A stretch of 64,000 nucleotides of DNA, from assembly GCA_043804895.1 (NCBI GenBank), contig JAZDIN010000004.1:8887-72886 (forward strand), in the 5' to 3' direction. Below the pieces are notes generated by a model that worked only from the letters and a program-made list of their open reading frames with translations, did not search any database and was not told the DNA's origin. Made by a program: the position numbers and the translations under genes. This document shows positions 5,365-30,351 of this stretch, piece after piece. The stretch comes from Candidatus Altiarchaeota archaeon (GTDB taxonomy: Archaea; Altiarchaeota; Altiarchaeia; IMC4; SCGC-AAA252-I15). Numbering within the stretch: the stretch's first letter is position 1; every line of letters starts with the position of its first letter.

Positions 5365-5443
5365 CCAGATCCGTGTACCCTATTTCCCCATCCCCAAATC
5401 CCCATGATTTTAAAGTCCTACGACCTACTCAGAAAGAGCATAT

Positions 5444-5528
5444 GACTACAGGCGCAGGGGAGGTAGTCATACAGAGTATCCCCACTTAAACTAAACATAC
5501 TGTCCAACACCTAATCGGGGCGACCTAT
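5444..5528 (+). repeat. R-family repeat, copy R1 (full length, with the 9-bp-stem hairpin)
   Basis: tatgactac (5441-5449) and gtagtcata (5463-5471) form a 9-bp stem around a 13-nt loop. Downstream come tcccc-acttaaa and the core aatcggggcgac (5513-5524). About 80% identical to R4 by eye. Confidence 0.75.
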
Positions 5529-6478
5529 TAAAGGTTTAGCGACTGGACTTTTAGGGTGACTTTATCGTCACTTTTGCATTCGTTTATCTCAATCGTGATA
5601 TGCGTGAGCTCGTGAACCTTCTTTAATCTTTCCTTGTAGTATTTGACAGAGTATTTCCTGGCTGTTACGACAGAGATTATGCTGGCGTATTTTTCATCTG
5701 CCACCTGTAATAGGTGCAAATCGCAGACTTTTGAGTCTCCATCGGATTCTATTATCTCTTTGATGTCATTTGATAAAGAAGAAACCATCTTGTGATCTAG
5801 CAATATACTCGCGGAGTCCCTCAATAGCAATGCCGACCATCGGGCTATTAAAAAAGCGCCAACCAGCCCCATAACAGGGTCCAGCCAGTTAAGGTTATAA
5901 TACTTTGCCCCGAGCAAGGCTGTTATGGCGAATACGGACGTCAATGAATCCGCGATTACGTGAAGGTATGCAGAACGGAAGTTCAAATCGTCATGGTTGT
6001 GATGCTCATGAGTATAGGGTGTTGATCCCCTATTGAGTATGGCTATGCATACAAGGTTGACTATAAGGCCGATTATTGCCACGGCAATTGCCTCGTTGTA
6101 GATAATGTTCAAGGGGTGTATAAGTCGTTCGACTGAAGTATAAGCCATTATCACCGCAACCAATCCAAGAATTAAGGCGCTAGAATAGGCTCCAAGTATC
6201 TCGATTTTCCATGTACCAAATGTGAAGCGAGCATTTTCAGATTGTTTCCTAGCCACTGTGTAAGCTATAACCGATATGCCTAATGCAAACGCATGGGTTC
6301 CCATATGCCAACCATCAGCCAATAAAGCCATGGAGTGAGTAAGCCATCCAAACAGAATTTCGGCAATCATCATCAGGAACGTGATTGCCACCACGATTAA
6401 CGCCACCTTCTCCAGACTTTTCTTGTCCCTATTGAAAGAATGATGATGCTGCCACTCCATTAAATGACTATGGTGCAT
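5528..6478 (-). CDS. Cation diffusion facilitator (CDF) family metal efflux transporter
   Basis: 316 aa with 6 TM segments. It has a His-rich N-terminus (MHHSHLMEWQHHH), a His-rich loop (HEHHNHDD) and a C-terminal cytoplasmic domain, the typical CzcD/ZitB architecture. Confidence 0.85.
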   Translation of the reverse strand: MHHSHLMEWQHHHSFNRDKKSLEKVALIVVAITFLMMIAEILFGWLTHSMALLADGWHMGTHAFALGISVIAYTVARKQSENARFTFGTWKIEILGAYSSALILGLVAVIMAYTSVERLIHPLNIIYNEAIAVAIIGLIVNLVCIAILNRGSTPYTHEHHNHDDLNFRSAYLHVIADSLTSVFAITALLGAKYYNLNWLDPVMGLVGAFLIARWSALLLRDSASILLDHKMVSSLSNDIKEIIESDGDSKVCDLHLLQVADEKYASIISVVTARKYSVKYYKERLKKVHELTHITIEINECKSDDKVTLKVQSLNL

Positions 6479-6537
6479 AACAACAACTTTGAATCAAATA
6501 AAATAAATCATGTATCGCATCGATATGCTTACCTACA

Positions 6538-7221
6538 TCACCTCTTCTCAGCCACGCCACGCACAAATGAAAGAATTCTATTCTTAGTTTGGCCTGTTTC
6601 TATGTGTGTGAACCCAGCTTTCTCGAGCATTGAGGGTAGTTCCCTAATATCGTTATGTTCCATTGTATGGCCAAGTAGGAAAGCGACAATGAGTCTGCCA
6701 CGTACGTTCTTCGGTGGTTCAAAATCTGCTATAAAGATATTCCCTCCAGGTTTCAGGACCCGATAAATTTCGGTAAATGCCTTCTGCTTAAGTTCGTCGC
6801 CGGGCAGGTGATGGATCATCAGGCAGCTGAGGACGATGTCGAAGTAGCTGTCTGGGAAGGTCAAACCTTCCACAACACCAACCTGAAAAGCTACATCTAA
6901 GCCAACTTTAATAGCTTTTTCTTTGGCGACCCCTATCATCTGGGGTGAAGCGTCGACGCCGTGGACTTCCCCACTTGGGCCAACTTTGTGTTTGGCTGCA
7001 ATTGTAAGGGTTCCTGTGCCGCAACCCACGTCGAGTACTTTGATTCCGGCAGATAGTTCGACCTTTTCAATCGCAGCCTCCGCTGTACTCATCTTCTCGC
7101 CGATTAGCCGAAGAAAAAGCGAGTTGAACGAGTCATACATATTAGCCCACTTTATGATCACCCCCTTTGTCTTTGGTGTCTTGGCGAAATTGGGGTTATT
7201 CATGTCTGTGTATCTCCTCAT
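6538..7221 (-). CDS. Class I SAM-dependent methyltransferase (UbiE/COQ5-like)
   Basis: Motif I VLDVGCGTGTL, post-I DASPQM, and LKPGGNIFI. Confidence 0.75.
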   Translation of the reverse strand: MRRYTDMNNPNFAKTPKTKGVIIKWANMYDSFNSLFLRLIGEKMSTAEAAIEKVELSAGIKVLDVGCGTGTLTIAAKHKVGPSGEVHGVDASPQMIGVAKEKAIKVGLDVAFQVGVVEGLTFPDSYFDIVLSCLMIHHLPGDELKQKAFTEIYRVLKPGGNIFIADFEPPKNVRGRLIVAFLLGHTMEHNDIRELPSMLEKAGFTHIETGQTKNRILSFVRGVAEKR

Positions 7222-7325
7222 TCAGGTTAAGTCTATCTAATCTCCATTTCCCACTCTATGGTTATTAGATATTACACTATAAACAAGGAAGTTCAAAGTC
7301 ATGAAAAATGTGCCCCCCCCTCTAG

Positions 7326-7389
7326 GTAGCGTAGTCACATAGAGTATCCCCCACCTAAAACGAACAGATTCTTCTAGTCCCGATCGGAG
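7326..7389 (+). repeat. R-family repeat, copy R2 (degenerate 5' hairpin, intact 3' part)
   Basis: The sequence gcgtagtcacatagagtatcccccacctaaaacgaacagattcttctagtcccgatcggag aligns with R1 and R4. It ends 1 nt before the stop codon of the ABC permease. Confidence 0.7.
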
Positions 7390-8160
7390 TTATACTTTCA
7401 TCTTCTTGAAGGCGTATGTTCCTATGGCTATCATCAGCGCCGAGAATAGGGTTAACGCAGCGAAATCCAATATCATCGGGAATGCTGAGACGCCAAGCAG
7501 CGCGCCCCTGAGGCCGTCGACTGCATAAGTCGCGGGGTCCAACATGGTGAGCGGGGCCAGCCAGGGTGGCAGGTTGTCTATAGGGTAGAGGGCTCCGGAG
7601 AGGAAGAACATTGGGAATATCACGAAGCTTATCACCAGTTGGAATCCTTCGGGGCTTTCCATCTGCGACCCGATGATGAGGCCTACGCTGACCATGCCGG
7701 CGGTCGTCATGAGCATGAACGCCAACGCTATGGGGACTGACACGACATTCATATGTAGGCCGCTCATCATCCCTGTCGCGGACAGTATGAACCCGATGGT
7801 GAGGAGGATGACGGCCTGTATCACCGTCTCGGTTGAGCCGCCGACGACCTTCCCTATGAAGATTGACGTCCTGGACATGGGAGAGACGAGGACTTCCTTC
7901 AGGAAGTCCACCTTCTTGTCCCAGATTATGTACACACCGAAGAAGATGGATGAGAAAAGGACCGCCTGCACCAGCACGCCAGGGTAGATGAACGTCTGGT
8001 AGTCCATTCCGTTGACTGATACGAATGAGCCTATCCCGCCGCCGAGGAGCACGAACCAGAGCAACGGGTTTATGACCGAGGACACGGCCCTCGACTTCTC
8101 CCTCATGAACACCTTGGACTCCCTGTACCAGAGCGCGTAAATCCCCTTAAGCTGTATCAT
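7390..8160 (-). CDS. ABC-2 type transporter permease
   Basis: 256 aa with 6 TM segments, immediately downstream of the ABC ATPase on the same strand. Confidence 0.75.
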   Translation of the reverse strand: MIQLKGIYALWYRESKVFMREKSRAVSSVINPLLWFVLLGGGIGSFVSVNGMDYQTFIYPGVLVQAVLFSSIFFGVYIIWDKKVDFLKEVLVSPMSRTSIFIGKVVGGSTETVIQAVILLTIGFILSATGMMSGLHMNVVSVPIALAFMLMTTAGMVSVGLIIGSQMESPEGFQLVISFVIFPMFFLSGALYPIDNLPPWLAPLTMLDPATYAVDGLRGALLGVSAFPMILDFAALTLFSALMIAIGTYAFKKMKV

Positions 8161-9152: not shown

Positions 9153-11360
9153 GTGCAAACAAATGGCGAGTCACAGGGAAAGATGAGAGTGTTCGACAGG
9201 GACAGGTTTGTCGTCTTCAGCATATCCCTGACCCTTTTCATGCTGCAGGTACTCTACACGAGGATATTCTCAGTTGCCTTCTGGTACCACCACGTCGCCT
9301 TTGTCGTCAGCTTGAGCCTTCTCGGCCTTGGAGCAGGCGGAATGTTCTACCTGCTATTCCGTGAGAGGCTAGGTGCGGGAGTACTGCGGTGGTTGACGCC
9401 CCTACTCCCAGCCACCATACTCTTCGGCTTAGAGTTCGTCACCAACACCCCGCTCAACCAAGTGCAACCGTTCCGAGACGCCTACATGAACTGGGCGTTA
9501 TACTGTCTCCCAATCTCGCTGACATATGTTATCGGAGGCATGTGCCTCACCAACATATACTCAAAGAAGCCGGATGGGATTGGGCCCTTGTATGCGGCTG
9601 ACATGGCAGGCGCCTGTTTGGCGTGCGTTGCAGTCGTTCTAGCTCTGCCGGTTCTGGGGGGGGAGAACGCGGTGGCTTTCACGTCAATGATAGCATGCGC
9701 GCCTGCCCTGGCAGTGTTCCAGGGTTCGAGGAAGGTGATGTGCATTTTCGCCGCCTTCATGATAGTGACAGCCTTCCTGATGGGAAGCGGCGGTTTTGGA
9801 CTGCAACACCTCAAGGTCCCCATCGGGAAGGAGACGCTACTTGACACTAGATGGAACGTGTTCTCAAGAGTCGATTTGACTACTAAGGGCTATGTCTTCT
9901 GGAGCCCCGCCGACGGTTACAGGGACTTGAACGACAACATACCGAGCTTTGGATTGAGGATTGATGACGCGTCAAGGTCAACTATCCTCAGGAACGTCTC
10001 GGACCTCTCGTTCTTCGAATACGACCTGCCTTACGTGGGCTACAACCTTGGAGGGGGTAAGAGAACGGCGTTGGTGATTGGCTCCGGCGGTGGGGTCGAC
10101 GTCCTCGCAGCCTCGCACTTCAACTACACCGACATAACGGCTGTGGAGATAAACCCAGTCATAGTCGATTACGTGCGTGAGATGAACCCCGCAATCTACG
10201 ACAACCCGAAGGTGACGCTGGAAGTCGACAACGGACGGAGCTTCATCATGCGGACCCCCCGGAAGTTCGACCTGATAGGCCTCACTTTCGTCACAACCTA
10301 TGCTGCGATGAACTCAGGCTCCTACTCGCTCTCAGAGAACTTCGTCTACACTGCCGAGGCGATGGCGGACTACCTGGACCACCTCACGCCAGGAGGCGTG
10401 GTCTCCATCAGCCGCACATCCAGCTTAGGCGGAGCATTCAACGAAAGGTCGCGTCACCTGAGGATTATCGTCGAGACGCTTGGAGGAAGGGACATCGAAC
10501 ATCCTGAGGCTAATGTTATTATAGTGAACCACGGAGGGGCTGACACGATACTCGTGAAGGGGGAGCCTTTCACAAAAGACGAGCTAGAGGAACTGGAGGC
10601 GAGGGCTGGCAGGCTCGGGTTCAATGTGACGGCAGGGGACGACATATCGAAAGAGTTGGCAAACCTAGACCCTTACCTTCCGACCGACGACAGTCCGTTC
10701 TTCTTCAACTCGTGGATTGGAGACAGGCTGCTCTTGTCCCTATTGAAGGCGTCGACTCTGCTTTTTACATTATCCATCCTGGCCCCCCTAATCCTCAAGA
10801 GGGGATTAAGGGTTGTGGAGAACGCGCGGTTCATACTTTACTTCCTCACGATAGGAGCAGGTTATATGCTGCTTGAGATTCCGCTTGTGCAGAGGTTCTC
10901 GCTCCTTTTGGGTTCGCCCACCCTCTCATTCACTGTGATACTTTTCACGCTCCTTGCGTCAACTGGGTTGGGGAGCCTCAAGTCCGAGAAGATGGAGGGG
11001 AGAGCTGGTAGGGTTTTCGCATCCCTGGTTGCGCTCATAACACTCTACTGCCTCTTTTTGCCGTGGGTTGTGAGGGAGCTCTCAATCCTCCCACTTCCAG
11101 GAAGGATACTCGCAACAGCAACCCTACTCTCCCCCCTCGGTTTCCTTTTGGGTTTCTTCTTCCCTGCAGGGATTAGGCGGGCGGGTGGGAAAACAGACCT
11201 GGTGGCTTGGATGTGGGGCGTTAACGCGACCGCTTCGGTCATCGGAGCCAACGCCGCACCATACATCGCGATACAACACGGGTTCACTTCAGTTATGGCA
11301 CTGGCGATCCCAGTGTATACGATAGCCTACCTTATGCTTGGAAGGAAGACACTACTTTGA
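9153..11360 (+). CDS. Membrane protein with a central spermidine-synthase-like (class I MTase fold) domain flanked by polytopic TM domains
   Basis: 735 aa. The soluble middle carries VIGSGGGVDVLAA and ITAVEINP, flanked by multi-TM N- and C-terminal regions. The ATG at 9183 (MRVFDRDRF) may be the true start. Confidence 0.6.
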   Translation: MQTNGESQGKMRVFDRDRFVVFSISLTLFMLQVLYTRIFSVAFWYHHVAFVVSLSLLGLGAGGMFYLLFRERLGAGVLRWLTPLLPATILFGLEFVTNTPLNQVQPFRDAYMNWALYCLPISLTYVIGGMCLTNIYSKKPDGIGPLYAADMAGACLACVAVVLALPVLGGENAVAFTSMIACAPALAVFQGSRKVMCIFAAFMIVTAFLMGSGGFGLQHLKVPIGKETLLDTRWNVFSRVDLTTKGYVFWSPADGYRDLNDNIPSFGLRIDDASRSTILRNVSDLSFFEYDLPYVGYNLGGGKRTALVIGSGGGVDVLAASHFNYTDITAVEINPVIVDYVREMNPAIYDNPKVTLEVDNGRSFIMRTPRKFDLIGLTFVTTYAAMNSGSYSLSENFVYTAEAMADYLDHLTPGGVVSISRTSSLGGAFNERSRHLRIIVETLGGRDIEHPEANVIIVNHGGADTILVKGEPFTKDELEELEARAGRLGFNVTAGDDISKELANLDPYLPTDDSPFFFNSWIGDRLLLSLLKASTLLFTLSILAPLILKRGLRVVENARFILYFLTIGAGYMLLEIPLVQRFSLLLGSPTLSFTVILFTLLASTGLGSLKSEKMEGRAGRVFASLVALITLYCLFLPWVVRELSILPLPGRILATATLLSPLGFLLGFFFPAGIRRAGGKTDLVAWMWGVNATASVIGANAAPYIAIQHGFTSVMALAIPVYTIAYLMLGRKTLL

Positions 11361-11783: not shown

Positions 11784-11885
11784 CAACGACCAGCGGCCTT
11801 AGCCGCTGGTTTGATAAGCATGAAACCGCAATATTAGATGCATACATTAACCGCCCACCCAAAGGGGGGCGGTTTCATCGCTTAT
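11784..11885 (+). repeat. 102-nt structured element, copy X (divergent copy; its 3' end overlaps the leuA start codon)
   Basis: caacgac-cagcggc-ctta-gccgctg-gtttgataagcatgaaaccg...ccgcccacccaaaggggggcgg-tttcatcgcttat. It has the same length and two-domain fold as copies Y and Z, with compensatory changes. It is flanked by AT (11782-11783) and ends in AT (11884-11885). Confidence 0.75.
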
Positions 11886-13407
11886 GAATCAGTTCTGGTA
11901 CGACAGGAATGTCGAACCTAAGGGGAAGCCGAAGAGGATTCAGGTTTTTGACACCACGTTAAGGGATGGAGAGCAGACGCCGGGAGTCAACTTCACTGCC
12001 GAGGATAAGAAGGAGGTAGCCTCGGCCCTGTCGAAGCTGGGGGTGGACTTTATCGAAGCCGGATTCCCAATCTCAAGCGAGGGGGAGTTCAAGGCAGTTA
12101 AGGGGATAAAGGAGCTGGGACTCAAAAGCAGGATAGTCGGCCTCGCCCGCTGCGTCGGGAAGGACATGGACGCGGCGTTGGACGCTGGCGTAGACATGGT
12201 CCACATTTTCATAGGCACTTCGCCGATTCATAGGGAGTATAAGCTGAAGATGACGAGGGAGGAGATTCTGAAGAGGGCGCAGGAGAGCATACAGTATGTG
12301 AGGGACCACGGGGGTAAGGTGCACTTCAGCCCTGAGGACGCGTGCAGGACTGAGCTCGACTTCCTGAAGGAGGTGTGCGTGATGGCTGAGTCGAATAAGG
12401 TGGAACACATCAACATCCCGGACACAGTTGGCGTTATGACTCCTGCTGCGATGGGATGGCTCATCGCGGAGCTGAAGGGGGTTGTGAAGGTTCCTCTTGC
12501 AGTTCACTGCCACAACGACTTCGGGATGGCAGCAGCGAACACGATAACGGCGGTGATGTCCGGTGCGGTGATACCGCACGTCACAGTCAACGGCCTCGGG
12601 GAGAGGGCGGGCAACGCCGACCTAGAGCAGGTCGTCCTCGGGTGTAAGCTAATACACGGTGTGGAATCGAACGTGAACACGAAGAGAATATGGGAGACCT
12701 CAAGGCTCGTGGAACGGTTGAGCGGCATTAAGGTGATGCCGAACTTCCCGATAGTCGGAGGCAACGCGTTCGCCCACGAGAGCGGAGTCCACGTCCACGG
12801 AGTCCTCGCGAAGGCCGCCACCTACGAGGCCATCAAGCCTGAGATTGTGGGTGCGAAGAGGAAGCTCGTCCTCGGGAAGCTCGTCGGCAAACACGGAGTC
12901 AAGGACAAGCTGAACGCGATGGGGTTGAAGGTCACTGAAGAGCAGGCGAGGGACATAACACAGAAAGTGAAGGACCTAGGAGACAAGGGCAAGAGAGTCA
13001 CAGAGGAAGACCTGGCCGCGATAGCAGAGGACATGGTCGGAAAAGGCTCGAAGAAGGAGAGATTGGTAGAGCTGAAGGATATGACATTGCACATGGAGTA
13101 CGGAGTGAACCCGACAGCCACAGTCGCGCTCCTTGTAAAGGGCAGGGAGAAGTATGCTAGGGCCGTGGGCGTCGGCCCCGTGGATGCGACGTTGAACGCG
13201 ATAAGGGCCGCCCTCGGAGACAAGGACATACAGTTGGACGACTACCACCTCGACGCCATATCAGGAGGGTCAAATGCCCTCGCAGACGTGTCAATCAAAG
13301 TCAGCAAAAACGGGAAAAGCACCATGGCCCGGGGAGTACACGAAGACGTCGTAATGGCATCAGTACTCGCGTTCATCAACGGAGTCAACAGGATAATGAG
13401 AAAATAG
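11884..13407 (+). CDS. leuA: 2-isopropylmalate synthase / (R)-citramalate synthase family (LeuA/CimA)
   Basis: 507 aa. It has the FDTTLRDGEQTPGV catalytic N-terminus, HCHNDFGMA, NGLGERAGNA, and a C-terminal LeuA-dimer regulatory domain. The sequence alone cannot separate LeuA from CimA. Confidence 0.85.
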   Translation: MNQFWYDRNVEPKGKPKRIQVFDTTLRDGEQTPGVNFTAEDKKEVASALSKLGVDFIEAGFPISSEGEFKAVKGIKELGLKSRIVGLARCVGKDMDAALDAGVDMVHIFIGTSPIHREYKLKMTREEILKRAQESIQYVRDHGGKVHFSPEDACRTELDFLKEVCVMAESNKVEHINIPDTVGVMTPAAMGWLIAELKGVVKVPLAVHCHNDFGMAAANTITAVMSGAVIPHVTVNGLGERAGNADLEQVVLGCKLIHGVESNVNTKRIWETSRLVERLSGIKVMPNFPIVGGNAFAHESGVHVHGVLAKAATYEAIKPEIVGAKRKLVLGKLVGKHGVKDKLNAMGLKVTEEQARDITQKVKDLGDKGKRVTEEDLAAIAEDMVGKGSKKERLVELKDMTLHMEYGVNPTATVALLVKGREKYARAVGVGPVDATLNAIRAALGDKDIQLDDYHLDAISGGSNALADVSIKVSKNGKSTMARGVHEDVVMASVLAFINGVNRIMRK

Positions 13408-13411
13408 ACTG

Positions 13412-16400
13412 TCAGTATTTCCTGGGTCCTGACAGCATCTCGTCTGACACCCAGTAGGTTCTGGCTTCCATGTCAGGTTGTTGTTCAAGGATTTTTGCTT
13501 TCTCCAGCCGGTCCACAACGTCTATTATCTCCTTGGGGGTGTGCGGGAGGTCTTCGTTTTCTGAGGGGTTCTGCCAGTAGAGGTGCATGCACAGTCTTTC
13601 CAGGTGTCTTTGCCTTATGGTGTGCCACAGGTTCAGGCGGTGTCCGCTTAAAGTCTCTATGATCTTCACCATTATATCCTTAGTTTCGGCAGTGCCTCTC
13701 ACCTCCTCGCTTAGTATCTTGCCTAGGGTCTCCTGCGCAAGGTTTTCAAGGTTCTCGTCTCCTGGGAACTTTTTCGTCAGCGCGTAGTATCCTCGCGTGC
13801 CGACTGGGATTATTAGTCCCTGTTTCTTTAGGGATTGTACCACGTTGTTAACTTTGCTCTCGTCTATCCCCAGGTCTTGTGCCACTTCCTTGTTTATGCC
13901 CTCGCGTTTCATTATGCCCTGCCCGACGAGGAGCACGTTAGATATGACCTTGAGGACCGCCCTGGCGGCATAGGGGTTAGGGAACCGTGATATGCGTTCC
14001 TCGATCTCCGCCTCTCTGTCCTCCAGGGCAGGGTGTAGGACCATTGCCGGGTTCGGAACAGTAATTTCGTACATGTCCTTCAGTATGTGTACGTCGCGGT
14101 GGTCTTCATAAGACCTTGGCTTTTCCTTCAGGATGTGCGGGCTGATGGCGTCAGTCTCATGGTCTGCCTCCAGCAGTATACCAACGTGGCGTAGCTCGCG
14201 CAGCAAATCCCTCACGTAAGGGTTCATGACATCTTTTGTCTCCGGCAACCCTGGACAACCATTCGTCAGGCAGTCGGTGACGAGGTCATCTCTACCTACC
14301 GTGTGGTTCGGCTTGTTAGAGATTATGTTGATTATTAGACGGGCTGCCTCGAGTTTATCGTCCTTGACATTAAGCAGCAACCTCTCTAGCCTCATTTTAT
14401 TAACATTCTCGTTAGTCTGGTCCCATGAGGTTGTCTTACCATCGTCTGATTTTATGTCTCTGAGGAGGCATCCATCAGATACGCTTGGGCTTGTTTCAGG
14501 GTCGGTTACTACACCAAGCCGAGACAATTCCCTGAGGTCTGCCTTTATCCCTTCGATACGACCAGCTTCGGTGTCTGGGTATATGACCCCAAGTACCGGG
14601 TGTTTTGAGCAGAGTTCTGCCAATTTCTTTATCTCCAGGTGGCCGGTGAAGTGGCTTACAGCTTTTGCCAGCTCCTCCTCCACGTAGCTTAACCTCCTGT
14701 TGTTTATGGTTTCCGCGTTAACGTAGCGTTGGAAAGCGTGGAACGGGTGGGGGAAATCCGGTTGGGGGCGTCTCTTGTACGGGTTCGCAAAGACCTTCCC
14801 GTCCATGAGTATCATGTCCTTTTGCATGAGTTCCTTCCTTGTCATCTTGTGCGTTGATGATGCTGTGGTTGATGGTGTTGTGCTGACTTCTCCCTCGTCT
14901 TCTTCCTCGGGGTCTTTCCCGAGTATTCTTGTATACTCAACATAACTGATCGAGCCTTCTTTGTTAAGCTTTCCCACAACGACCATTGTCTTGTTCACGT
15001 CCTTCAGGTGTCTTGAGTCGATCAGCATCGTCGGGGGAAGCGAACCAGTCTGCCCGTAAAGTTTCTCTGCCCCGATTCTGTTAAGATTTTTGAGAGCATC
15101 AATGCTTGCGAGTCCCCTGTGTTTTCCGGAGCCGACCTTTCTGAGATAGTCTTCGACAAGACCCCACACCTTACTGCTCTTGCGCTCCCATGTGTCGAGA
15201 GTCTGGATCTCGTCTAGTGCCTCCTTCCTCGTTAAAAAGTCTATGAGTATAGGCTGTTTCGCTATCGCCCTGAAGTATTCTGTCGTGTCTATGCCCCTCT
15301 TCTTCAGGTCTTTGGCGTCGATCTTCTGCAGCTTCCTTATGCGCATGTTGACGTTTAGCGTCCCGTACGATTCGGTAAGTGCTCCGAAGTCGCTGGGTCT
15401 CCCAAGGAACACAGCCCTTAGTATGGACTCCTTTGTTGCATCTTCTCCTAGTTCAACGTCCGGCAGTTTTGAAAGGACTTCAGACATCTCCTCCGCTAGT
15501 TTCACCCCCCTGTCTATCCTCCCGAGGTCTGTGCATTCATCGATGTTTTTCGTGTTCTGGAGTATGTGTGTTAGGAATCCCATCTGGAAGTCGGATTCGC
15601 CGACGCCCCCCATTCTTTTGACTGCGGGAATGATCTTCTTTTCGATGTCCCTCGCCGCCGTTTTGCCTGTCATGAAAATCCTGAAGTTGTTGTTCCATTT
15701 CGCCAGATCTAACATCCTAAGGTATGCGTCCTCCCCGAGTTCTTTGCCTAAGTTGAGGGTCCAAATTCTTAGCACCCCCTCTATCACCCTCTCCGCTTCA
15801 ACCACGTCCACCTGTGGGGGGAGTGGTTTTGCTGGGATTTCTTCAGTGGTGGCGCCTTCACCTACTGTGAGAGTCTTATCTTCTGCAGGCTCGGCGGGAG
15901 CGGGCTTCGGAGGCTCGACCATGCCGATTATGACATCAAGCTGGTAGACTATGTCTTCTAAGATAGGCCTTGAGATTCGTTTATGTTCTTCCAGGTCATC
16001 TCTGTATTTTTGTTTTGGGATGAGTTCAGGGTCTATGCGGGGCTCTGATGATTTAAGATCCTTTTCTAATTGTTCTAATTGTGGGCTTAGAAAATGCCAG
16101 GCCGCTGTTTTTTGTCTTTTCTTTCGTGTGTCTGCTGTTAGGAACTCTAGTTGGTCTTGTTTGTCTTGCGGGATGAAGTTGGGGTGTAGGTAGGTGTCGA
16201 CTGATTCGCCGCCTCCTTTAGTCAGGTATGAGGTGGCTAGGATAAACTCGGCATATGCCCAGTCTCCCGCGTTGATGTGGTCTATCAGCCTCTGGGTCCT
16301 CTCCGAGTCACGGGACAGTGTCTTCCACTCTGGGAGTTTTTCTTTTTTTATTAGTTCGGCGCCGGCGGCGGCTCTGAAAGGCCCTTCCTCCTGCCTGAGG

Positions 16401-19400
16401 AGTGATGACAAATTCTCTAGGGTTGTTTTTTCTAGCCCCGCAACTACAGATAGTGTGTTGAACTCATCCTCCCTGCCGTCGGCTTTAAGCCAGAATGCGT
16501 CCTCAAGTACTGCCGTGGACTTCCCGTGCAGCTTCACGATTTCCGTGTGGTGTTCTCTGAGGAACTCGTCTGCGGAGGGGATGCTTCCCCTGTCAGCCCA
16601 GTTATAGTACCAGCCGGCCAATCCGAGGTCGCAGTTTTGAGGTAGTGTGTCCTCGAACTTCCTCTCCCCTTCGGATATGCCATGTAAGGCCGCCATTTTT
16701 TCCCCCATATTTTGTGGCGTCATATCGGTCAATGCTTCTCTGAGATGTGTGAAGTATTCGCCGTCAAGCAGTTGGAACCTGCCGACCTCTCGGATGTCCT
16801 GTGCGAATTGGCCTAGGTTGAGGACTCCCTTGATGACTTCGATTCTGCCCGCACCTACCACAGCCGATCTTAGCGTTTGGAGGGCTCTGACGACCGTCTC
16901 GGGCTTAGTGCCGCTGTGATTCTCTTTGAACTGTTTGATGAACTGTTGCGCTTCGCCGGTTGATGCGAAAAGCTTCGGGTTGTCGGACCAGATTCTGGAG
17001 AATTCCTCCCTGACTCCTCTGTCAAAGTCGCCAAACATCATATTCACTACCCTCGGCCTCTCCTCAGGGTGTATGCCCTCTGCCTCCCAGGAGCGGTCTC
17101 TTGCCTTTGTCAAGTCTGTGATGGTATTTTCCTGGTTCGCTAGTAAGGGCGTAAGGTGTTCGACGCCGGTGACCTTCAGTATGCTGTTGACTTCCCGGAG
17201 TGTGTTATCTCTTTTGGCTTCATCGTCTGAAATCGTTAGGATAACCTGGGCTTTCACACTCTCGTCGCCGCCTTTACCGAGCCTCCTCAATGCCTCCTCT
17301 GCAAGCTGCCACCGATTCTTTGGACCTGACCAGCGGGAGAGTTTTTCAAGATTTTCCGGTGTGAAAAAGTCTCTGTGCTCCCCCCCGACTAGGAGGCCCA
17401 GTATGCCACCCAGTTTACCTGCATTTTTCAGGGCGTGTAGGTGGTCTATTGTCCTTGGTTCCTCTTCGATGAGGTTACTGACAGTGTCGGAGGTGATTGC
17501 AGAGGTGTGTTCCGAGAGTAGGTTCAGATATTTCGCAGCCGACCCCTTCGAGGTCTCCTCAGCCCTCAGCAGGAGGGATGTAGTCCCTTCTGATGCTAGT
17601 AATGCACGCCTGTCAGGTTCAGAGTCCATGAACAGGTCGAAGTAATCTTGCACGTATGGTCTTTTGACCATCTCTTTCAGCGTGTCCCTGTAGTCTGGAT
17701 TGGTTAAACATGAGAAATATTTTAGAGCGTATTCTGCCTCCCTGCTGGAACCCTCTGGCATGTTCTCTGGCTGCTTTAGTTTAGTCCGGCCCTGGGCCGA
17801 CCTTAATAGGCGGTCCATCAACGGGCCCAGTATCTCCGGCTCCGCCTCCACTGTTTGCAGGAAGGCTTTACCAGTCTCTGATGTGGGTATGAGATACTCC
17901 TGCGCCCTCTCAATCCTATAGAAGCCTAATACGGTCTTGGGTGTGTCAGGCCCCATCCTTTCCAGCTGGTCCAAGTATTCTTGTGTTACCACCATGTCAA
18001 GACGGTCCATCCTATCCAGGGGTATCCTGTCAAGGGACTGGACATAGTCCACCATAAATTGTCTTTCAACGTTCCCCTTCTTTGAGATTAGCTCGTATAT
18101 CTCCGCCGGTATGTCCTTTTTTTCGCCTGGCTGGTCTTCTTTAACGAATAGTGTATTGATGTCTATGGATTCATCCCCTAAACCAGTGCCGCCGGTAACT
18201 CCCTCTGTCCAATATGCTGCTGAGAGTGGCTGATTCTCCCTGTTGAGCTTTATTACCCGGTCTATGAACTCGTTGAAGTGGTAGTTCATAGAAAGGCTCA
18301 CCCTGCCCTCCTGGACCTTAGCCAGCTTCTTGTCGACTTCCCTTTCTATGAGTCTCATACCGTCCAGGTTTTTTATATTCGTGGTGGCGGCTGGGAGTTT
18401 AGTCACAGCACCGTTTATCTCCTTAATCCATTTTAGCATCTGCTCCATCGAGTCTATGCTCCCCCACTGGTCCAACTCCTCCAGGGACAGGAGGAACGCG
18501 TTATTCGCTTCTTTCGCGTCTCCGAGTTGTTTTATGAAATTTGGGCTTTCTGGCTCGCCAGCGTTTACCGCGGATATTGCTTCTCTGAGCGAGGTCACAG
18601 GAGCTGAACTCCGTAGGACATAATGGAATTGTTCACGCATCTTTGTCATGTTGTCCGTTAGGCTGCCTAGAGCAATGACCGAATCATATGCCACGTCGAC
18701 AACGGCTGTGGAGTACAGCGTCTGTTGTTCGGGCTTAAGGGACAACACCCCCTTAACAACATCCATGAACTTCGCCGGGTTGATTTCCGATAGGGTATCC
18801 GGATGGAAAAAATCTTCGGGTTTGACTTCGGCTTCTGATTCTATCCCCTTAGTCCGTTCCAACACACCCTCGCGTACCGTCTCGAATGGTACGCCGGCCT
18901 TCAGCTTGGAGGCCATCTCCTCCATCACCTCTATCGCCGATTTGACGGTATCGGAGTCCCTTATTTTCGTCATACCGGCCCTAACGGTCTCCCTGGCGGT
19001 TATGTCCTCTTCTTTGATTGAACGTTCGATGATCTTATCGCTTTTCCAGTATTTCGTTCTTTTCCTCAGGTCCTTTAAGACGTGGTTGATTTCTTCACCG
19101 CCTTCAATCCTCTGGACGAATTCTTTTATCTCCCCGATAGCTGCTAGCACTATTATGTATCGTTCAACGCGGTCGTATGTTTCCTTCATTTGGGAGGAGT
19201 GCGTTCTAACTGCTGCGCTATACCCAAAGGCATCTGTCAGATGTTTCTGGGCCGCGTCAATGTCCTCAAACCCGATGGACGAAAGCGCCTGCTCCCGTAG
19301 GTCAGGTTTTAGGCGTAGGATGTAGGAGGGGTCGAATGACACTATTTTTCCGAGGACTGTCTTATCGTCTTGGGTGATGCTTGGCTCAGCGATTCTGAAG

Positions 19401-21277
19401 AGTAGGGACATGAATCTCCTCCTTGACGTTTCATCAGATTTTTCATGAGAAGTTAACGTATCGGAATAGGTCAGATTCACCCACCGGATTACGTGGTGGT
19501 TGGCTTTGTTTGCTATTTCCAGAGCACTGTCCTTTGTGTATGATTTATTGGTTTCCTGGTCTACTAGCACCCGCTCTTCACCGAATTTTACCCCGCGCAT
19601 CAGGAGGGCATATTCTGCCTGGATGAAAGACAACACCCTCCGCCTCATCTGCTTCTCATCCAACACGTCCACTGTAGGCCCCTCGCCCCCACCAAATGAG
19701 ACGGAGATTGGCATATTATCGCCACCTTCGTGTTCACGTAATTTAATGGTTGACAACAGCGTCTGCTCAGCCAGGCCTTTCTGCCTCGACTCTAATTGGG
19801 CAAGGTTGTCGATTGTCTCCTGCCTCGCGGCTGTAGCAAATTTAGGTTTCATGTGTTCAGGTATGGCAGCCAGCGACCTCACATAGGTTGGCATGAAAGG
19901 GAGCCCGCTGTTTTCTAGTATCAGTCCAAGGACTTCTGGTCGGCACAATCTGTCATCTACAGTCAACGCTGGTTGGCTGGAGGTGTCTATCTTAACAGCC
20001 GACTCCCAAAGTGCCTTAGCAACAAGTGGTGTCATCCTGTCAGAAAGTAACACGCCCATAAGGCTTGACATGTTCTCCTGGGCTTCTTTCAGGGTTACTG
20101 CCTCCCCATGGTCCTTTAAACGTTCTCCCATACCGTCCAGACCACGCTTTATTGACTTGACATAGTCTTCAGTGTCAGGGGGTAAGGGGGAGTCGACAAG
20201 GGCATCGGTTAGATTAGAGGCCCACCCTATCATTTTTAGTATGGGGACACCCATCCCCCATGCATTCAGCTGCCTGGAGACTTTTAAAATCTCCTTATTT
20301 GCAGCATCCAGTATTTTAAGCTTTTTCTGGAACGTCTTCGTCCCAGCTTCCTCGCCCGCAACATCAGTTAAACAGGCAGCCCATTTTTTCAAGATCTCCT
20401 CTTCACCCATATTCGAGGCGATTGTCCCGCCAAGATCTAGCACAGCCAAGGATGCATTTGTCAAGCTCCCCGCAGAATTTATTCCTACACCGAATAGCAG
20501 GGTTGTATAGAACTTTTTCTCCCCTTCCGCTAATTTTCCCTCATTCAGTAATTCGGACATGCGGGTAATAACACCCTTCCTCAAATCAAATACCTGACTG
20601 GGGTTTAGTGCCTCTTCGCTCTGGTTTGACCAGAATTCGGATGGGCTTACCTCCTGACCAGCGTCATACTTGCCTTTTACTTCCCGCATTTTTTTGACAA
20701 TACCGTGACCTGTCCGTTCAAAACGGAATCCGGCCCTCACCGCATCCAGTGCCTTACCTGCCCCATCTTGACTGAAACCAATCGCTTTCAAAGTATCAAC
20801 TGCCTCGTCTTCTTTCAGAAGGAGTAGAGAGTATGCTGATGGCGCAAACCTAAGCTCATCACCCATGAAAGTCGTGTCCAAGAGTAAATTGAACAACTGC
20901 TTGTCAGGTAGGCCCTTGGTTTTTGCACCCAATTCGAGTATTTCACCAACTATCACCTCGGACATTTTCTTGTCCATTTTTTCGGAGGCGAGGGAGTCGC
21001 TGAAACGCCATAAAAGCCATTTCAGATATTTTGGATTGCTCTGCTCAACTGCCTTGAGTACCTGGTCAAGTTTGACATCTGAATATTTTTCCTTAACCTG
21101 AAATTCGCCTTTTTTCACATAAACCGGTAGCGTGCCCTTAACCGGCCCATCTGCTTTTTCGAATACCTTCTGGATGTAGTCTATTATTCTTTTTCTTGTT
21201 TCCATGACTCCATCCATCAGTGGGGGGAGCCCTCCGCCATCACCCCAATGGTAGTACTTTGTAGGGCCTAGTGGCAT
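13412..21277 (-). CDS. Giant hypothetical protein (2621 aa), cytoplasmic and largely alpha-helical, with four C-terminal winged-helix-like modules
   Basis: A single uninterrupted 7.9-kb ORF. All + strand ORFs across it are short shadow ORFs. I see no signal peptide, TM segment, P-loop or HExxH. The C-terminal 450 aa shows a fourfold pattern ending LRELSRLGVV, LRELRHVGILL, VQSLKKQGLIIPVGTRGYYALT and VDRLEKAKILE. Confidence 0.8.
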   Translation of the reverse strand: MPLGPTKYYHWGDGGGLPPLMDGVMETRKRIIDYIQKVFEKADGPVKGTLPVYVKKGEFQVKEKYSDVKLDQVLKAVEQSNPKYLKWLLWRFSDSLASEKMDKKMSEVIVGEILELGAKTKGLPDKQLFNLLLDTTFMGDELRFAPSAYSLLLLKEDEAVDTLKAIGFSQDGAGKALDAVRAGFRFERTGHGIVKKMREVKGKYDAGQEVSPSEFWSNQSEEALNPSQVFDLRKGVITRMSELLNEGKLAEGEKKFYTTLLFGVGINSAGSLTNASLAVLDLGGTIASNMGEEEILKKWAACLTDVAGEEAGTKTFQKKLKILDAANKEILKVSRQLNAWGMGVPILKMIGWASNLTDALVDSPLPPDTEDYVKSIKRGLDGMGERLKDHGEAVTLKEAQENMSSLMGVLLSDRMTPLVAKALWESAVKIDTSSQPALTVDDRLCRPEVLGLILENSGLPFMPTYVRSLAAIPEHMKPKFATAARQETIDNLAQLESRQKGLAEQTLLSTIKLREHEGGDNMPISVSFGGGEGPTVDVLDEKQMRRRVLSFIQAEYALLMRGVKFGEERVLVDQETNKSYTKDSALEIANKANHHVIRWVNLTYSDTLTSHEKSDETSRRRFMSLLFRIAEPSITQDDKTVLGKIVSFDPSYILRLKPDLREQALSSIGFEDIDAAQKHLTDAFGYSAAVRTHSSQMKETYDRVERYIIVLAAIGEIKEFVQRIEGGEEINHVLKDLRKRTKYWKSDKIIERSIKEEDITARETVRAGMTKIRDSDTVKSAIEVMEEMASKLKAGVPFETVREGVLERTKGIESEAEVKPEDFFHPDTLSEINPAKFMDVVKGVLSLKPEQQTLYSTAVVDVAYDSVIALGSLTDNMTKMREQFHYVLRSSAPVTSLREAISAVNAGEPESPNFIKQLGDAKEANNAFLLSLEELDQWGSIDSMEQMLKWIKEINGAVTKLPAATTNIKNLDGMRLIEREVDKKLAKVQEGRVSLSMNYHFNEFIDRVIKLNRENQPLSAAYWTEGVTGGTGLGDESIDINTLFVKEDQPGEKKDIPAEIYELISKKGNVERQFMVDYVQSLDRIPLDRMDRLDMVVTQEYLDQLERMGPDTPKTVLGFYRIERAQEYLIPTSETGKAFLQTVEAEPEILGPLMDRLLRSAQGRTKLKQPENMPEGSSREAEYALKYFSCLTNPDYRDTLKEMVKRPYVQDYFDLFMDSEPDRRALLASEGTTSLLLRAEETSKGSAAKYLNLLSEHTSAITSDTVSNLIEEEPRTIDHLHALKNAGKLGGILGLLVGGEHRDFFTPENLEKLSRWSGPKNRWQLAEEALRRLGKGGDESVKAQVILTISDDEAKRDNTLREVNSILKVTGVEHLTPLLANQENTITDLTKARDRSWEAEGIHPEERPRVVNMMFGDFDRGVREEFSRIWSDNPKLFASTGEAQQFIKQFKENHSGTKPETVVRALQTLRSAVVGAGRIEVIKGVLNLGQFAQDIREVGRFQLLDGEYFTHLREALTDMTPQNMGEKMAALHGISEGERKFEDTLPQNCDLGLAGWYYNWADRGSIPSADEFLREHHTEIVKLHGKSTAVLEDAFWLKADGREDEFNTLSVVAGLEKTTLENLSSLLRQEEGPFRAAAGAELIKKEKLPEWKTLSRDSERTQRLIDHINAGDWAYAEFILATSYLTKGGGESVDTYLHPNFIPQDKQDQLEFLTADTRKKRQKTAAWHFLSPQLEQLEKDLKSSEPRIDPELIPKQKYRDDLEEHKRISRPILEDIVYQLDVIIGMVEPPKPAPAEPAEDKTLTVGEGATTEEIPAKPLPPQVDVVEAERVIEGVLRIWTLNLGKELGEDAYLRMLDLAKWNNNFRIFMTGKTAARDIEKKIIPAVKRMGGVGESDFQMGFLTHILQNTKNIDECTDLGRIDRGVKLAEEMSEVLSKLPDVELGEDATKESILRAVFLGRPSDFGALTESYGTLNVNMRIRKLQKIDAKDLKKRGIDTTEYFRAIAKQPILIDFLTRKEALDEIQTLDTWERKSSKVWGLVEDYLRKVGSGKHRGLASIDALKNLNRIGAEKLYGQTGSLPPTMLIDSRHLKDVNKTMVVVGKLNKEGSISYVEYTRILGKDPEEEDEGEVSTTPSTTASSTHKMTRKELMQKDMILMDGKVFANPYKRRPQPDFPHPFHAFQRYVNAETINNRRLSYVEEELAKAVSHFTGHLEIKKLAELCSKHPVLGVIYPDTEAGRIEGIKADLRELSRLGVVTDPETSPSVSDGCLLRDIKSDDGKTTSWDQTNENVNKMRLERLLLNVKDDKLEAARLIINIISNKPNHTVGRDDLVTDCLTNGCPGLPETKDVMNPYVRDLLRELRHVGILLEADHETDAISPHILKEKPRSYEDHRDVHILKDMYEITVPNPAMVLHPALEDREAEIEERISRFPNPYAARAVLKVISNVLLVGQGIMKREGINKEVAQDLGIDESKVNNVVQSLKKQGLIIPVGTRGYYALTKKFPGDENLENLAQETLGKILSEEVRGTAETKDIMVKIIETLSGHRLNLWHTIRQRHLERLCMHLYWQNPSENEDLPHTPKEIIDVVDRLEKAKILEQQPDMEARTYWVSDEMLSGPRKY

Positions 21278-21328
21278 GTGTTAGTATACGCAGGACAGCT
21301 TAATATCGGGGGACATTGTTTATCCGTT

Positions 21329-21340
21329 CTTTTATTTTTA
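21329..21340 (+). promoter_or_regulatory. Possible TATA-like box for ilvD, inside the 85-bp divergent intergenic region shared with the giant ORF
   Basis: cttttattttta is centred about 28 nt upstream of the ilvD ATG (21363). That spacing fits a leaderless or short-leader archaeal promoter. This is a by-eye call only. Confidence 0.3.
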
Positions 21341-21362
21341 CAGTCGTATATTCTCCCTGAAG

Positions 21363-23012
21363 ATGAGGTCTGACAGGATAAAGAGGGGCGTGGAGAGGAC
21401 TCCGAACAGGGCACTCCTTTATGCCACGGGCGTTAGTAGGAGGAGTATGGGTAAGCCGTTCATAGGCATAGCCTCGTCTTACACTGACCTTGTTCCAGGC
21501 CATGTTGACATGCGGCAGCTTGAGAGGTTCATAGAGCGCGGAGTCGAAGCCGGCGGAGGAACCCCTTTCATATTCGGCGTTCCGGCAATCTGCGATGGGA
21601 TAGCGATGGGCCACCAGGGGATGAAGTATTCTCTGCCGTCTAGGGAACTGATAGCTGATGAGGTCGAGTCGATGGCTGGAGCCAACGCGTTGGACGGGCT
21701 CGTCCTACTCACAAACTGCGACAAGGTAACGCCTGGGATGCTGATGGCTGCAGCGCGATTGGACATACCCTGCATTGTGGTGACTGCGGGGCCGATGTTG
21801 TGCGGGAGGAAAGATGGCGTGCGATTGGACTTGGTGAAGGACACGTTCGAGGCTGTGGGGAGATACCAGGCCGGGAAGCTGTCCGCCGGGGACGTCCACT
21901 CCCTTGAGGTTGAGGCCTGCCCGGGGTGCGGCTCATGCCAGGGACTGTACACCGCGAACACGATGGCATGCCTCACGGAGACAATGGGGATGAGCCTTGT
22001 CGGGTGCGCGACGGCGCTCGCGGTGTCCGCTAAGAAGAAGCGGATAGCGTACGAGAGCGGAGTCAGGATAGTGTCTCTTGTGAGGAAGAATCTCACAGCA
22101 AGGAGGATAATCACAAAGAAGGCTATATACAATGCGGTTGTTGTTGACAATGCGATGGGAGGCTCAACGAACACGACGCTCCACATACCAGCGATAGCGC
22201 ACGAAGCTGGGATAGAGATGGACTTCAACCTGTTCGACAAAGTCTCAAGGAAGACGCCGCACATAACGAACATAAGGCCAGCAGGGGAACACTTCATGGA
22301 AGACGTGGAATACGCAGGCGGAGTGCCGGGAGTACTCAACGTTCTCAAGGAGAGGCTGAAACCGAATCCGACAGTCAGCGGATACAACATAAAAAAGATC
22401 GCGGAAAGGGCGAGGGTAATCAATCACGACGTCATAAGGCCGCTAGCCAGAGCCTACCACAGGGAAGGTGGCATAGCGGTGCTAAAGGGGAACCTCGCAC
22501 CCCTCGGCGCAGTAGTCAAACAGACTGCAGTCACTGAGAAGGCGTTGAGAATCAAAGGCCCAGCCAAAGTCTACGACAGGGAAGAGGATGCAATGGCAGC
22601 CATACTGGGAGGAAAGATAAAGGCAGGCGACGTCGTAGTCATAAGATACGAGGGCCCCAAGGGAGGCCCAGGGATGAGGGAGATGCTCAGTCCCACAGCG
22701 GCCATAGCCGGGATGGGACTTTCCGAATCGGTTGCGCTCATAACAGACGGAAGATTCTCAGGAGGAACGAGAGGCCCCTGCGTCGGACACATAAGCCCGG
22801 AAGCCGCCGACTGCGGGCCGCTAGCGTACGTGCAGAACGGGGACACGATACTAGTGGACATACCCGCGAGGAAGCTGGAACTGCTGGTGCCTGCGAAGGA
22901 GCTGGATAAGAGGAGGAAAACCTGCAAGGTAAAAAAGACAACAGCGAAAGGCTGGCTCCTAAGATACAGCAAAATGGTCCAAAGCGCAGCCAAAGGCGCG
23001 ATACTGGAATAG
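21363..23012 (+). CDS. ilvD: Dihydroxy-acid dehydratase
   Basis: 549 aa with [52 protein letters not shown], and a C-terminal [11 protein letters not shown]. Confidence 0.92.
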
Positions 23013-23435
23013 TCAGAGGTATTTCTCGAACTCGGCCCACTGCTCCGCTGAATATCCCCCGTTCTCCTTCAGCCAGGATAGGGTATAGATATACCCCTCG
23101 ACATTCAGCCACCGACCATAGTCTACTGGCCTGGAAGCCATAATGTATTTACGAGACAGCTGCGATAATAAGACATTCAGTTTCTCACTACCCAGCGGGT
23201 CTAGCATCTCCCTAGCAACTTTTTGAGAAAGGTTTACGTCATGTGTCTTACCTAGCACATGGTAATACAGTATTTTGCTCGGAAGTTCTGACAATAGTAG
23301 TCTATCCTCATCCCCACTGGCTACGGCACCTATATGAGATTTCCCCCTTGTTACATCGTATAGTGGAGAATGTACTGTGTTTTCATCAGTGATGGAAACA
23401 GTATCAATACCCTCATCATACAGTGGCTTTTCCAT
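23013..23435 (-). CDS. Hypothetical protein (140 aa)
   Basis: The ORF abuts the ilvD stop (convergent) and lies 11 nt downstream of the 244-aa ORF. No motif recognised. AT-richer by eye. Confidence 0.5.
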   Translation of the reverse strand: MEKPLYDEGIDTVSITDENTVHSPLYDVTRGKSHIGAVASGDEDRLLLSELPSKILYYHVLGKTHDVNLSQKVAREMLDPLGSEKLNVLLSQLSRKYIMASRPVDYGRWLNVEGYIYTLSWLKENGGYSAEQWAEFEKYL

Positions 23436-23446
23436 ACCCTCGTGAC

Positions 23447-24181
23447 CTATTCCCGGGTTGTTACTACGGCTGCGCCAGGGTTTTTCACCCTGACTTCCTT
23501 TAAAAGTTCCCTGAACTCAGAATCTCTCTTCGAAAGCACTATTGGTGTCCTATCCACAACAGCCCGTAGAGTCTGCATATATCCTCGAATGTCGCCTAAG
23601 AGGGCAATGCGATAGGCTTGGGTTGGCAACACCTCAACCTCCATACACTCTAGCCATGTCTTGAAAGATATGTCCTCGCAGACAGTAGGTAATCCTCTAA
23701 AGCCTTCAGTCAACTCCGAGATATAGGCCCGTTTATACTTCTTTACATGTTCAAATGTCGTTCTCAACTCCGTATCACGTAACCGAGCAGGCAACTTCTG
23801 GACCCTTGTTTTGATATCCTCATACCGGTAAGGGTCTGTGATGACGTCCTCCAAGACTAAGACCGTCTTATCATGTTTCTTTCTTATCTCGTCCATACGT
23901 GCAAACGACCATTCTTCATTTACTCGACCACCATGCGGACCGTAGATGAAGTAGACTGGCTGGTCCAGCTCCTGCAGGAACTTGTCCTGTGTGCCATGAC
24001 TTCGGCGGTAAAAATACTGCGCCTGAAGGGTGCCATTTCTGGCTAGAAGCTCATACAACATGTCCAGCTTCTTCTGGCGCCTAACCTCCCCTACCTCCAT
24101 CGGCTGCCTAAGCCCAACATAATTTTCTTTTCCAAATTCATCTCTGGATAGGCCTGGAACAACTAACTCTTTTTGCCCCAT
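23447..24181 (-). CDS. Hypothetical protein (244 aa)
   Basis: The ORF fills the interval. No motif recognised. Confidence 0.55.
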   Translation of the reverse strand: MGQKELVVPGLSRDEFGKENYVGLRQPMEVGEVRRQKKLDMLYELLARNGTLQAQYFYRRSHGTQDKFLQELDQPVYFIYGPHGGRVNEEWSFARMDEIRKKHDKTVLVLEDVITDPYRYEDIKTRVQKLPARLRDTELRTTFEHVKKYKRAYISELTEGFRGLPTVCEDISFKTWLECMEVEVLPTQAYRIALLGDIRGYMQTLRAVVDRTPIVLSKRDSEFRELLKEVRVKNPGAAVVTTRE

Positions 24182-30026: not shown

Positions 30027-30027
30027 A

Positions 30028-30231
30028 TCAACCCTCCTTCCTCACTATAACGTATCCCCTCCCATCCAGCCAGTGGTGGAACTGCCAGGCCATGCACTTC
30101 CTGCACTCGGCCCTCGTCCTCTCATACTCGACCGAACCCTCCTTATGATGGTTCATCTTAAGCTGCACAGGACATTTAATGTCCCTACAGTACTCCCTCT
30201 TCTGATAGTCAACGTAACCTGAGATAGGCAT
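30028..30231 (-). CDS. Small Cys-rich (putative Zn-binding) protein, 67 aa. The track ORF extends to 30327 through a repeat.
   Basis: MPISGYVDYQKREYCRDIKCPVQLK...AECRKCMAWQF. The upstream 32 codons of the track ORF (MDFMLSNISEGTRLTIPPKRSKELCPQLYLSK) are encoded by repeat module M3, which recurs at 45365-45426. I therefore take the start as the ATG at 30231. Confidence 0.5.
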   Translation of the reverse strand: MPISGYVDYQKREYCRDIKCPVQLKMNHHKEGSVEYERTRAECRKCMAWQFHHWLDGRGYVIVRKEG

Positions 30232-30242
30232 TTTCGAGAGAT

Positions 30243-30304
30243 ATAGCTGAGGGCATAACTCTTTAGACCTCTTAGGGGGTATAGTGAGCCTTGTGCCCTC
30301 AGAT
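30243..30304 (-). repeat. Hairpin module M3 (62 nt), copy B
   Basis: Its reverse complement aligns with 45365-45426: atctgagggcacaaggc...ttatgccctcagctat. The terminal arms ctgagggca and tgccctcag pair. Confidence 0.75.
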
Positions 30305-30351
30305 ATATTCGAGAGCATAAAATCCAAGTCAAGAAGGTTATGCTCTCGACT
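30305..30351 (-). repeat. Hairpin module M1 (47 nt), copy B
   Basis: The reverse complement, agtcgagagcataaccttcttgacttggattttatgctctcgaatat, has a perfect 12-bp stem (tcgagagcataa / ttatgctctcga). It aligns with 45264-45310. Confidence 0.75.

Follow-up and report, generated by a model that had tools for sequence, protein, structure and literature searches.

The 64,000-nt stretch of Candidatus Altiarchaeota archaeon DNA analysed here (GCA_043804895.1, contig JAZDIN010000004.1; hereafter the window, to which all unprefixed coordinates refer) carries on its minus strand a giant open reading frame (ORF) whose 2621-amino-acid (aa) product is listed by NCBI as 'hypothetical protein V1744_00915 [Candidatus Altiarchaeota archaeon]'. 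As judged from alignments with its relatives, the protein is a fusion that unites, in the order U' (truncated), U, X, M and tail, parts for which other genomes have separate genes side by side, and its gene belongs to a very small family of narrow distribution. An earlier annotation made from the letters of the DNA alone (the sequence-only reading) had called it an ORFan, a label that falls with the finding of distant homologs and of its parts as separate genes in other genomes. That the ORF is a genuine protein-coding gene, and that the statements on family and fusion hold, we regard jointly as close to certain. For the role of the protein we tentatively favour, at a little under an even chance, a non-enzymatic helical scaffold that is multi-subunit elsewhere and a single chain here, with a winged helix as its anchor. 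The parts of the giant are as follows:

13412..21277, minus strand: the giant ORF, 2621 aa, with an ATG start and its stop codon at 13412-13414.
19790..21205, minus strand: U', a truncated first copy of a ~730-aa unit (aa 25-496), covering approximately the first two thirds of the unit.
19676..19789, minus strand: linker between U' and U (aa 497-534), with the Gly-rich stretch SFGGGEGPT.
17270..19675, minus strand: U, a complete family unit (aa 535-1336), alignable over its full length with homologs 723-863 aa long.
16868..17269, minus strand: X, a 'swing' segment (aa 1337-1470) delimited by alignments with genes of contigs L003 and L001.
15926..16867, minus strand: M1 (aa ~1471-1784), one of two conserved halves of the middle region, N-terminal to the Pro-rich linker, matched by L003 ORF2 and the eighth L001 gene.
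15788..15925, minus strand: Pro-rich variable linker (aa ~1785-1830), with a Pro-rich linker at the equivalent place in the L003 homolog.
15029..15787, minus strand: M2 (aa ~1831-2083), the other conserved half, C-terminal to that linker, colinear with L003 ORF2 to the contig end.
14852..15028, minus strand: junction and acidic/Ser-Thr linker (aa 2084-2142), in which EEEDEGEVSTTPSTTASST starts at aa 2124.
13415..14851, minus strand: C-terminal tail (aa 2143-2621), containing four motifs quoted in the sequence-only reading.
13769..13957, minus strand: the sole supported winged helix-turn-helix, a probable one (aa 2441-2503), with a net charge of +6 and sub-threshold profile matches.

Comparison of the protein with itself revealed an internal repeat that the sequence-only reading does not mention. 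In a windowed Smith-Waterman scan z exceeds 12 for the similarity between aa ~20-480 and aa ~540-1090, and BLASTP aligns aa 26-473 with aa 543-1086 (24% identity, E 3e-10), so that the first ~1090 aa are two tandem copies of one module. The full extent of the module is given by its relatives. An exhaustive HMMER (phmmer) search with aa 1-1200 against 1.84 billion cluster representatives returned seven distant clusters (571-863 aa, 24-33% identical, E 2e-12 to 1e-4), which come from only three contig sets besides that of the window, five of them lying on one 32.5-kb JGI contig. The family members (P0002-P0008, P0010, P0011, P0013, P0016, P0017 and P0020) align end to end with aa 531-1336 of the giant, defining the ~730-aa unit that we call U. 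A profile built without the giant matches U at aa 582-1335 (E 1.5e-87) and, through profile positions 27-435, also matches aa 25-425 (E 2.8e-23), with a weak continuation to aa 496. Relative to its homologs the U of the giant carries an insertion of ~110 aa (aa ~706-815), and across the family the conserved positions are mostly aromatic or aliphatic, with no invariant His, Cys, Glu or Lys. A third, cryptic copy of U within aa 1337-2621 was considered and rejected, as the U profile yields only one insignificant stretch there.

In other genomes these parts are divided among several genes or are joined in another way. In one relative (contigs L001/L005) ilvD, whose product shares 72% identity with that of the window in a comparison of 294 residues and 70% in one of 553, is divergent, across 63 nt, from seven tandem full-length U genes (723-863 aa) that are 25-35% identical to one another. 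The eighth L001 gene, truncated where the contig stops, does not encode a U but a protein that matches aa 1353-1718 of the giant (25% identity, E 2e-31). The seven-U array is found again in an NCBI metagenome-assembled genome (MAG; L002/L004) and in an ENA assembly (L006). On a 56%-GC contig (L003) the U gene P0013 has a C-terminal extension equivalent to aa 1337-1453 and overlaps the gene downstream, ORF2, which matches aa 1481-2083 (28% identity, E 1e-50), the contig ending there. On the P0007 contig the U gene (744 aa) overlaps one of 1238 aa, a length near that of the 1285 aa following U in the giant. An M-type gene is found immediately downstream of U in L001 and L003 by sequence, is fused to U in the window, and has a probable counterpart, judged by length, on the P0007 contig, M as a whole being the conserved region of aa ~1337-2083 (~750 aa) that is divided by the Pro-rich linker. 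The boundary between the U and M genes falls either side of X in different genomes: BLASTP matches to P0013 of L003 extend up to aa 1453 and those to the eighth L001 gene start at aa 1353, X being the C-terminal extension of the U gene in the former and the N-terminus of the M gene in the latter.

Two further observations concern these loci. In the ENA assembly (ERZ23498639, SUTE22-1 scaffold_28464; L006:2893-5109) the first U paralog is represented by a 461-aa and a 210-aa gene, and in the JGI contig it is an intact protein of 738 aa; behind the split is either a variant (a frameshift or a pseudogene) or a fault in the assembly. On L005 (JGI 3300009008 Ga0115649_1006640), positions 1-4969, beyond a DUF835 gene and ilvD, there is a second tandem array of large genes (825+, 713 and 793 aa) that is unrelated to the giant and has neither a Pfam match nor a homolog in the window. 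The 713-aa and 793-aa products are 38% identical to each other, and the C-terminal tails of the array are extremely Lys-rich (e.g. the run KKKKKKKKKKK).

The giant ORF could also be an artefact, produced by an assembly chimera, or by sequencing errors that erased the stops between separate U, U and M genes. The relatives do encode the same parts as separate genes, the source is a single MAG, and the exact protein is on record for one contig only, a look-up of further, independent assemblies having found none. We nevertheless consider such an artefact extremely improbable, since each of three in-frame junctions would need the chance loss of a stop and of any spacer. In P0013, an independent gene on L003, U likewise runs into X without a break, the junctions of the giant resemble protein linkers (Gly-rich, Pro-rich and acidic/Ser-Thr), and U' is truncated at the protein level, which differs from simply reading through into the gene that follows. 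The composition stays even from one end of the ORF to the other: 2621 codons remain open within DNA of 51% GC, and codon-position GC is of the coding type in 6/6 segments of 500 aa (GC at first positions, GC1, above that at second positions, GC2; GC at third positions, GC3, 0.50-0.63). Finally, the internal order of the giant is colinear with independently assembled loci of other organisms.

For aa 531-1336 we obtained an AlphaFold2 model from a 13-sequence alignment. The model is all-alpha (mean predicted local distance difference test score, pLDDT, 76; predicted template modelling score, pTM, 0.56) and runs from an N-terminal cap (short helix, two strands, helix) through a bundle of long helices (53, 39 and 47 residues) and a small beta element into a solenoid of ~20 short helices. 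At a threshold of E 0.001 or better, Foldseek searches with this model returned nothing significant from either the PDB (best E 0.23, template modelling score no higher than 0.13) or BFVD (best E 0.1), with CAND1-SCF at E 8.0 and the APC/C at E 8.3. In the model U resembles rod and solenoid scaffolds, such as bundles of the spectrin/alpha-catenin type, nucleoporins and subunits of tethering complexes, in that long antiparallel helices are likewise followed by a short-helix solenoid, and the roughly seven equal-sized paralogs of the relative are comparable; yet there is no sequence or significant structural match, and the likeness is one of style only. Segment-wise modelling followed by Foldseek, the check named in the sequence-only reading, was informative for aa 531-1336, where no fold match emerged, and uninformative for aa 1422-2621, whose single-sequence model has a mean pLDDT of 34 and is too low to trust, although it places three helices at about the winged-helix positions.

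For the tail the sequence-only reading described four similar units, each a winged-helix-like module, behind an acidic/Ser-Thr linker. The linker (aa 2124) and the four quoted motifs (aa 2248, 2359, 2480 and 2588) could all be located, but the four ~100-aa units resemble one another at chance level (Smith-Waterman z -0.5 to 2.0), and of the four modules only the third (aa 2441-2503) gained support, with sub-threshold matches, whereas units 1, 2 and 4 have no Pfam match to E 10 and none in the PDB. At aa 2441-2503 more than 10 winged-helix families align in one register to the same 30-60 residues (E 1e-4 to 0.1), among them the Pfam families TrmB (E 1.2e-4), MCM_C (3.7e-4), NirdL-like_HTH (8e-4) and HTH_24 (3e-3), with further matches to MCM_WH_arc, RPA_C, MarR_2, HrcA and Rrf2. 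The PADLOC matches in this region are to the winged-helix C-termini of CARF/CasR/Csa3 proteins, PHROGs agrees, and the PDB sequences give a weak match to the MarR protein 2eth (E 0.016-0.28). We conclude that aa 2441-2503 probably form one winged helix. It matches helix-2, the recognition helix and the wing of the TrmB, MarR and MCM C-terminal winged helices (PF01978, PF12802, PF21100 and PF13412); unlike those proteins, the giant devotes only 63 of its 2621 residues to the module and has no dimerisation or ligand domain and no MCM or AAA+ core. The comparisons that the sequence-only reading drew with Orc/Cdc6, ESCRT-II and cullins fall because they rest on the unsupported four-module array; neither a Walker A motif nor a Pfam match to the cullin, ESCRT-II or ORC families was found in the giant. 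All that the giant still has in common with these tandem winged-helix scaffolds (ESCRT-II Vps22/25/36, cullin C-termini, Orc/Cdc6 C-terminus) is the notion that winged helices serve as terminal scaffolding modules of a helical protein.

The giant protein has no match in Pfam, NCBIfam, PHROGs, PADLOC or the PDB sequences outside aa ~2441-2503, so the profile and PDB searches for well-known domains throughout yielded the sub-threshold winged helix only. PDB sequence searches with the whole protein, the U profile, the M profile and tail units 1, 2 and 4 likewise gave nothing but the weak MarR match on unit 3, and word-index protein searches with the whole giant or with L003 ORF2 returned the query itself or nothing; one with the family alignment missed even its own members and carries no weight. 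Among genome contigs, a search with three U paralogs found only the contig already known. Scans of metagenome contigs with alignments of M and of U gave no match, a result that says nothing about absence, since the collection evidently lacks the samples of the JGI contigs, which the scans missed as well. No library gave a catalytic-domain match. A motif scan agreed with the sequence-only reading in finding no Walker A, DEAD/DEAH or HExxH signature, and it found no CxxC either; no NTPase, nuclease or protease motif was detected, and AAA+ families are matched in neither Pfam nor NCBIfam, with no DExx motif present. The protein also, as had been read, shows no evident transmembrane segment (top Kyte-Doolittle 19-residue mean 1.35) and is rich in Leu, Glu and Lys (10.8%, 9.5% and 7.7%, respectively).

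By the Rosetta-stone principle, proteins that are fused in one genome and separate in others tend to interact. U, X and M are separate or otherwise joined in L001, L003 and the P0007 contig and form one chain in the window, and from this fusion pattern we infer that U and the M-tail interact physically, the Rosetta stone being an evolutionary pattern and not a protein family. In the scaffold that we favour, U and the M-tail would bind each other to give a large non-enzymatic helical scaffold or adaptor, and the winged helix at aa 2441-2503 would attach it to nucleic acid, or possibly to a protein partner instead. The seven U paralogs of the relative, diverged yet intact, give the impression of separate subunits, or of adaptors exchangeable on a common hub. 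Because U and M are without a sequence match to any described family, and the predicted fold of U has no counterpart in the PDB or BFVD, we rate the protein as outside the known kinds; a search of the literature on giant Altiarchaeota proteins found nothing relevant. The 'giant soluble scaffold with a nucleic-acid-binding tail' proposed by the sequence-only reading was right in direction, given the all-alpha model of U (pLDDT 76), the lack of an enzymatic signature and one basic module, and its four-module array found support in no statistic obtained here.

Several points weigh against the scaffold. The exhaustive search covered aa 1-1200, with M and the tail searched by word index only, and the model of M and the tail (single-sequence, pLDDT 34) was not used for a fold search. 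The L001 and L003 contigs end before the region equivalent to the tail, and the 1238-aa partner of P0007 is known by its length. The U family members carry no functional annotation: they have no Pfam, NCBIfam or PADLOC assignment and no informative name, a single homing-endonuclease match (E 0.045) being all that PADLOC gives for the 13 of them. In two genomes ilvD is the only non-family gene beside the locus. All of the winged-helix matches lie below the gathering score (TrmB 22.3 versus 25.6 bits; HTH_24 17.6 versus 21.9), and tail units 1, 2 and 4 have a net charge of -3 to -4, so that DNA binding by an array in the tail is not favoured. Lastly, for a long multi-domain helical model the missing Foldseek matches in the PDB and BFVD argue only weakly for a new fold.

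A different role, and in our estimation an unlikely one, would be that of a component in antiviral defence or another inter-genomic conflict, in which the U paralogs would act as specificity or sensor modules and the M-tail as their shared hub or regulator. The distribution of the family is narrow and patchy (four contig sets among the 1.84 billion representatives), the U paralogs are tandem and strongly diverged, and the locus of the relative adjoins a second array of large uncharacterised paralogs. The GC3 of the giant ORF is ~0.1 below that of neighbouring housekeeping genes, with a similar offset in the genome of the relative, and its top PADLOC matches are to the winged-helix ends of CARF/CasR/Csa3 regulators. 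However, these matches span the generic winged helix only, PADLOC-DB 2.0 recognising nothing of the giant beyond it, and no effector-type domain (nuclease, NTPase, protease, TIR, SIR2 and the like) was found in any part. Relatives are also absent from the mobile collections searched: tblastn found no match in 50,697 phage and 72,556 plasmid records, pattern scans of IMG/VR found none, and PHROGs gave the winged helix only. Known defence genes are absent from the flanks examined, and the seven paralogs keep one length and one conserved core, which makes them more like subunits than products of an arms race. Recent horizontal transfer of the ORF was considered separately and dropped because the drop in GC3 is only moderate, the relative shows the same offset and no mobile-element genes flank the ORF.

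The flanking genes bear on a further explanation. As described in the sequence-only reading, a single 7.9-kb ORF lies between leuA and ilvD, its stop 4 nt from that of the convergent leuA (13407 versus 13412) and its start sharing an 85-bp divergent region with ilvD, and all of this was borne out. The neighbouring features are:

11884..13407, plus strand: leuA, with HMGL-like, HCS_D2 and LeuA_dimer domains and a match to NF002085 at 654 bits, convergent with the giant ORF.
21363..23012, plus strand: ilvD, matching TIGR00110 at 743 bits, the sole flanking gene common to the locus of the relative.
21278..21362, no strand: divergent spacer between the giant ORF and ilvD, 85 nt and A-T-rich, with TATA-like boxes (by eye) ~25-30 nt upstream of each ATG.

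With such neighbours the giant could be a very large transcription regulator of branched-chain amino-acid genes, its winged helix binding the ilvD promoter region and its helical body sensing a signal. In two genomes a short spacer (85 nt in the window, 63 nt in L005) separates the locus from the divergent ilvD, leuA lies on the opposite side of the giant ORF, and the winged helix resembles those of TrmB/MarR-type regulators. Nonetheless, we hold this to be very unlikely. The two ilvD-linked genomes are related (their ilvD products being 72% identical), so that common descent may be enough to account for the shared position; within 10 kb of the P0007 locus there is neither ilvD nor leuA, and apart from ilvD and the U/M locus itself no L005 gene is shared with the window. 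Moreover, seven 740-aa paralogs together with an M-type gene far exceed any known ilv/leu regulator, and no ligand-binding domain was detected.

Some local observations accompany the spacers and stops. The relative likewise has a short, A-T-rich spacer (L005:7694-7756) in which TATA-like boxes lie ~25-30 nt from either start codon, and conservation of sequence between the two spacers is not obvious by eye; both would fit leaderless or near-leaderless divergent transcripts. At the other end of the giant ORF the leuA stop TAG (13405-13407) and the giant stop TGA (TCA on the plus strand, 13412-13414) are 4 nt apart. A 7-bp inverted repeat, CTGTCAG ... CTGACAG, is present at 13409-13435, across the giant ORF stop and between the convergent genes. 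That it forms a bidirectional terminator hairpin over both stops was considered and rejected, since its predicted fold is no better than that of shuffled sequence (z -0.8 and -1.4).

Elsewhere in the window, two stretches (4001-8000 and 30001-34000) have a GC of 0.42-0.48 versus 0.51-0.55 in the remainder, with a GC3 of ~0.5 in their genes versus ~0.7, and may be acquired islands; one contains genes for an RsgA-type GTPase, a cation-efflux protein and a methyltransferase, and the other a gene for a Fic/DOC protein. A 735-aa ORF at 9153-11360 (plus strand) has a spermidine-synthase-like match at aa 302-376 only, just below threshold (22.3 versus a cut-off of 22.9 bits). Directly downstream of ilvD, at 23013-24181 (minus strand), are ORFs of 140 and 244 aa that have no Pfam match; the relative has the DUF835 gene at the equivalent place, and the sole match of that gene in the window is a short one, to the ORF at 40458-41075.

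Giant hypothetical proteins are common in MAGs. If the scaffold reading is true, though, the giant and its relatives would be the first known members of a protein family, and probably parts of a multi-subunit assembly that is likewise new, confined to a handful of uncultured archaeal lineages. The pattern of fission and fusion predicts from sequence which of its proteins bind, namely U with X/M-tail; the fused form presents the parts in a defined arrangement on one chain, and the seven-paralog array presents their natural variation. It is speculative, and we think it distinctly unlikely, but one might go further and picture an unrecognised archaeal helical machine, made of a hub and up to seven distinct, paralogous rod-and-solenoid subunits of ~740 aa, whose task in Altiarchaeota-like archaea might be to organise the chromosome or a structure associated with the envelope. 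Such a machine would be like the tethering, coat and nucleoporin-type scaffolds of eukaryotes in organisation and not in ancestry. Were it real, the gene in the window would be a natural single-chain, minimal version of it, and a convenient one for structural work.

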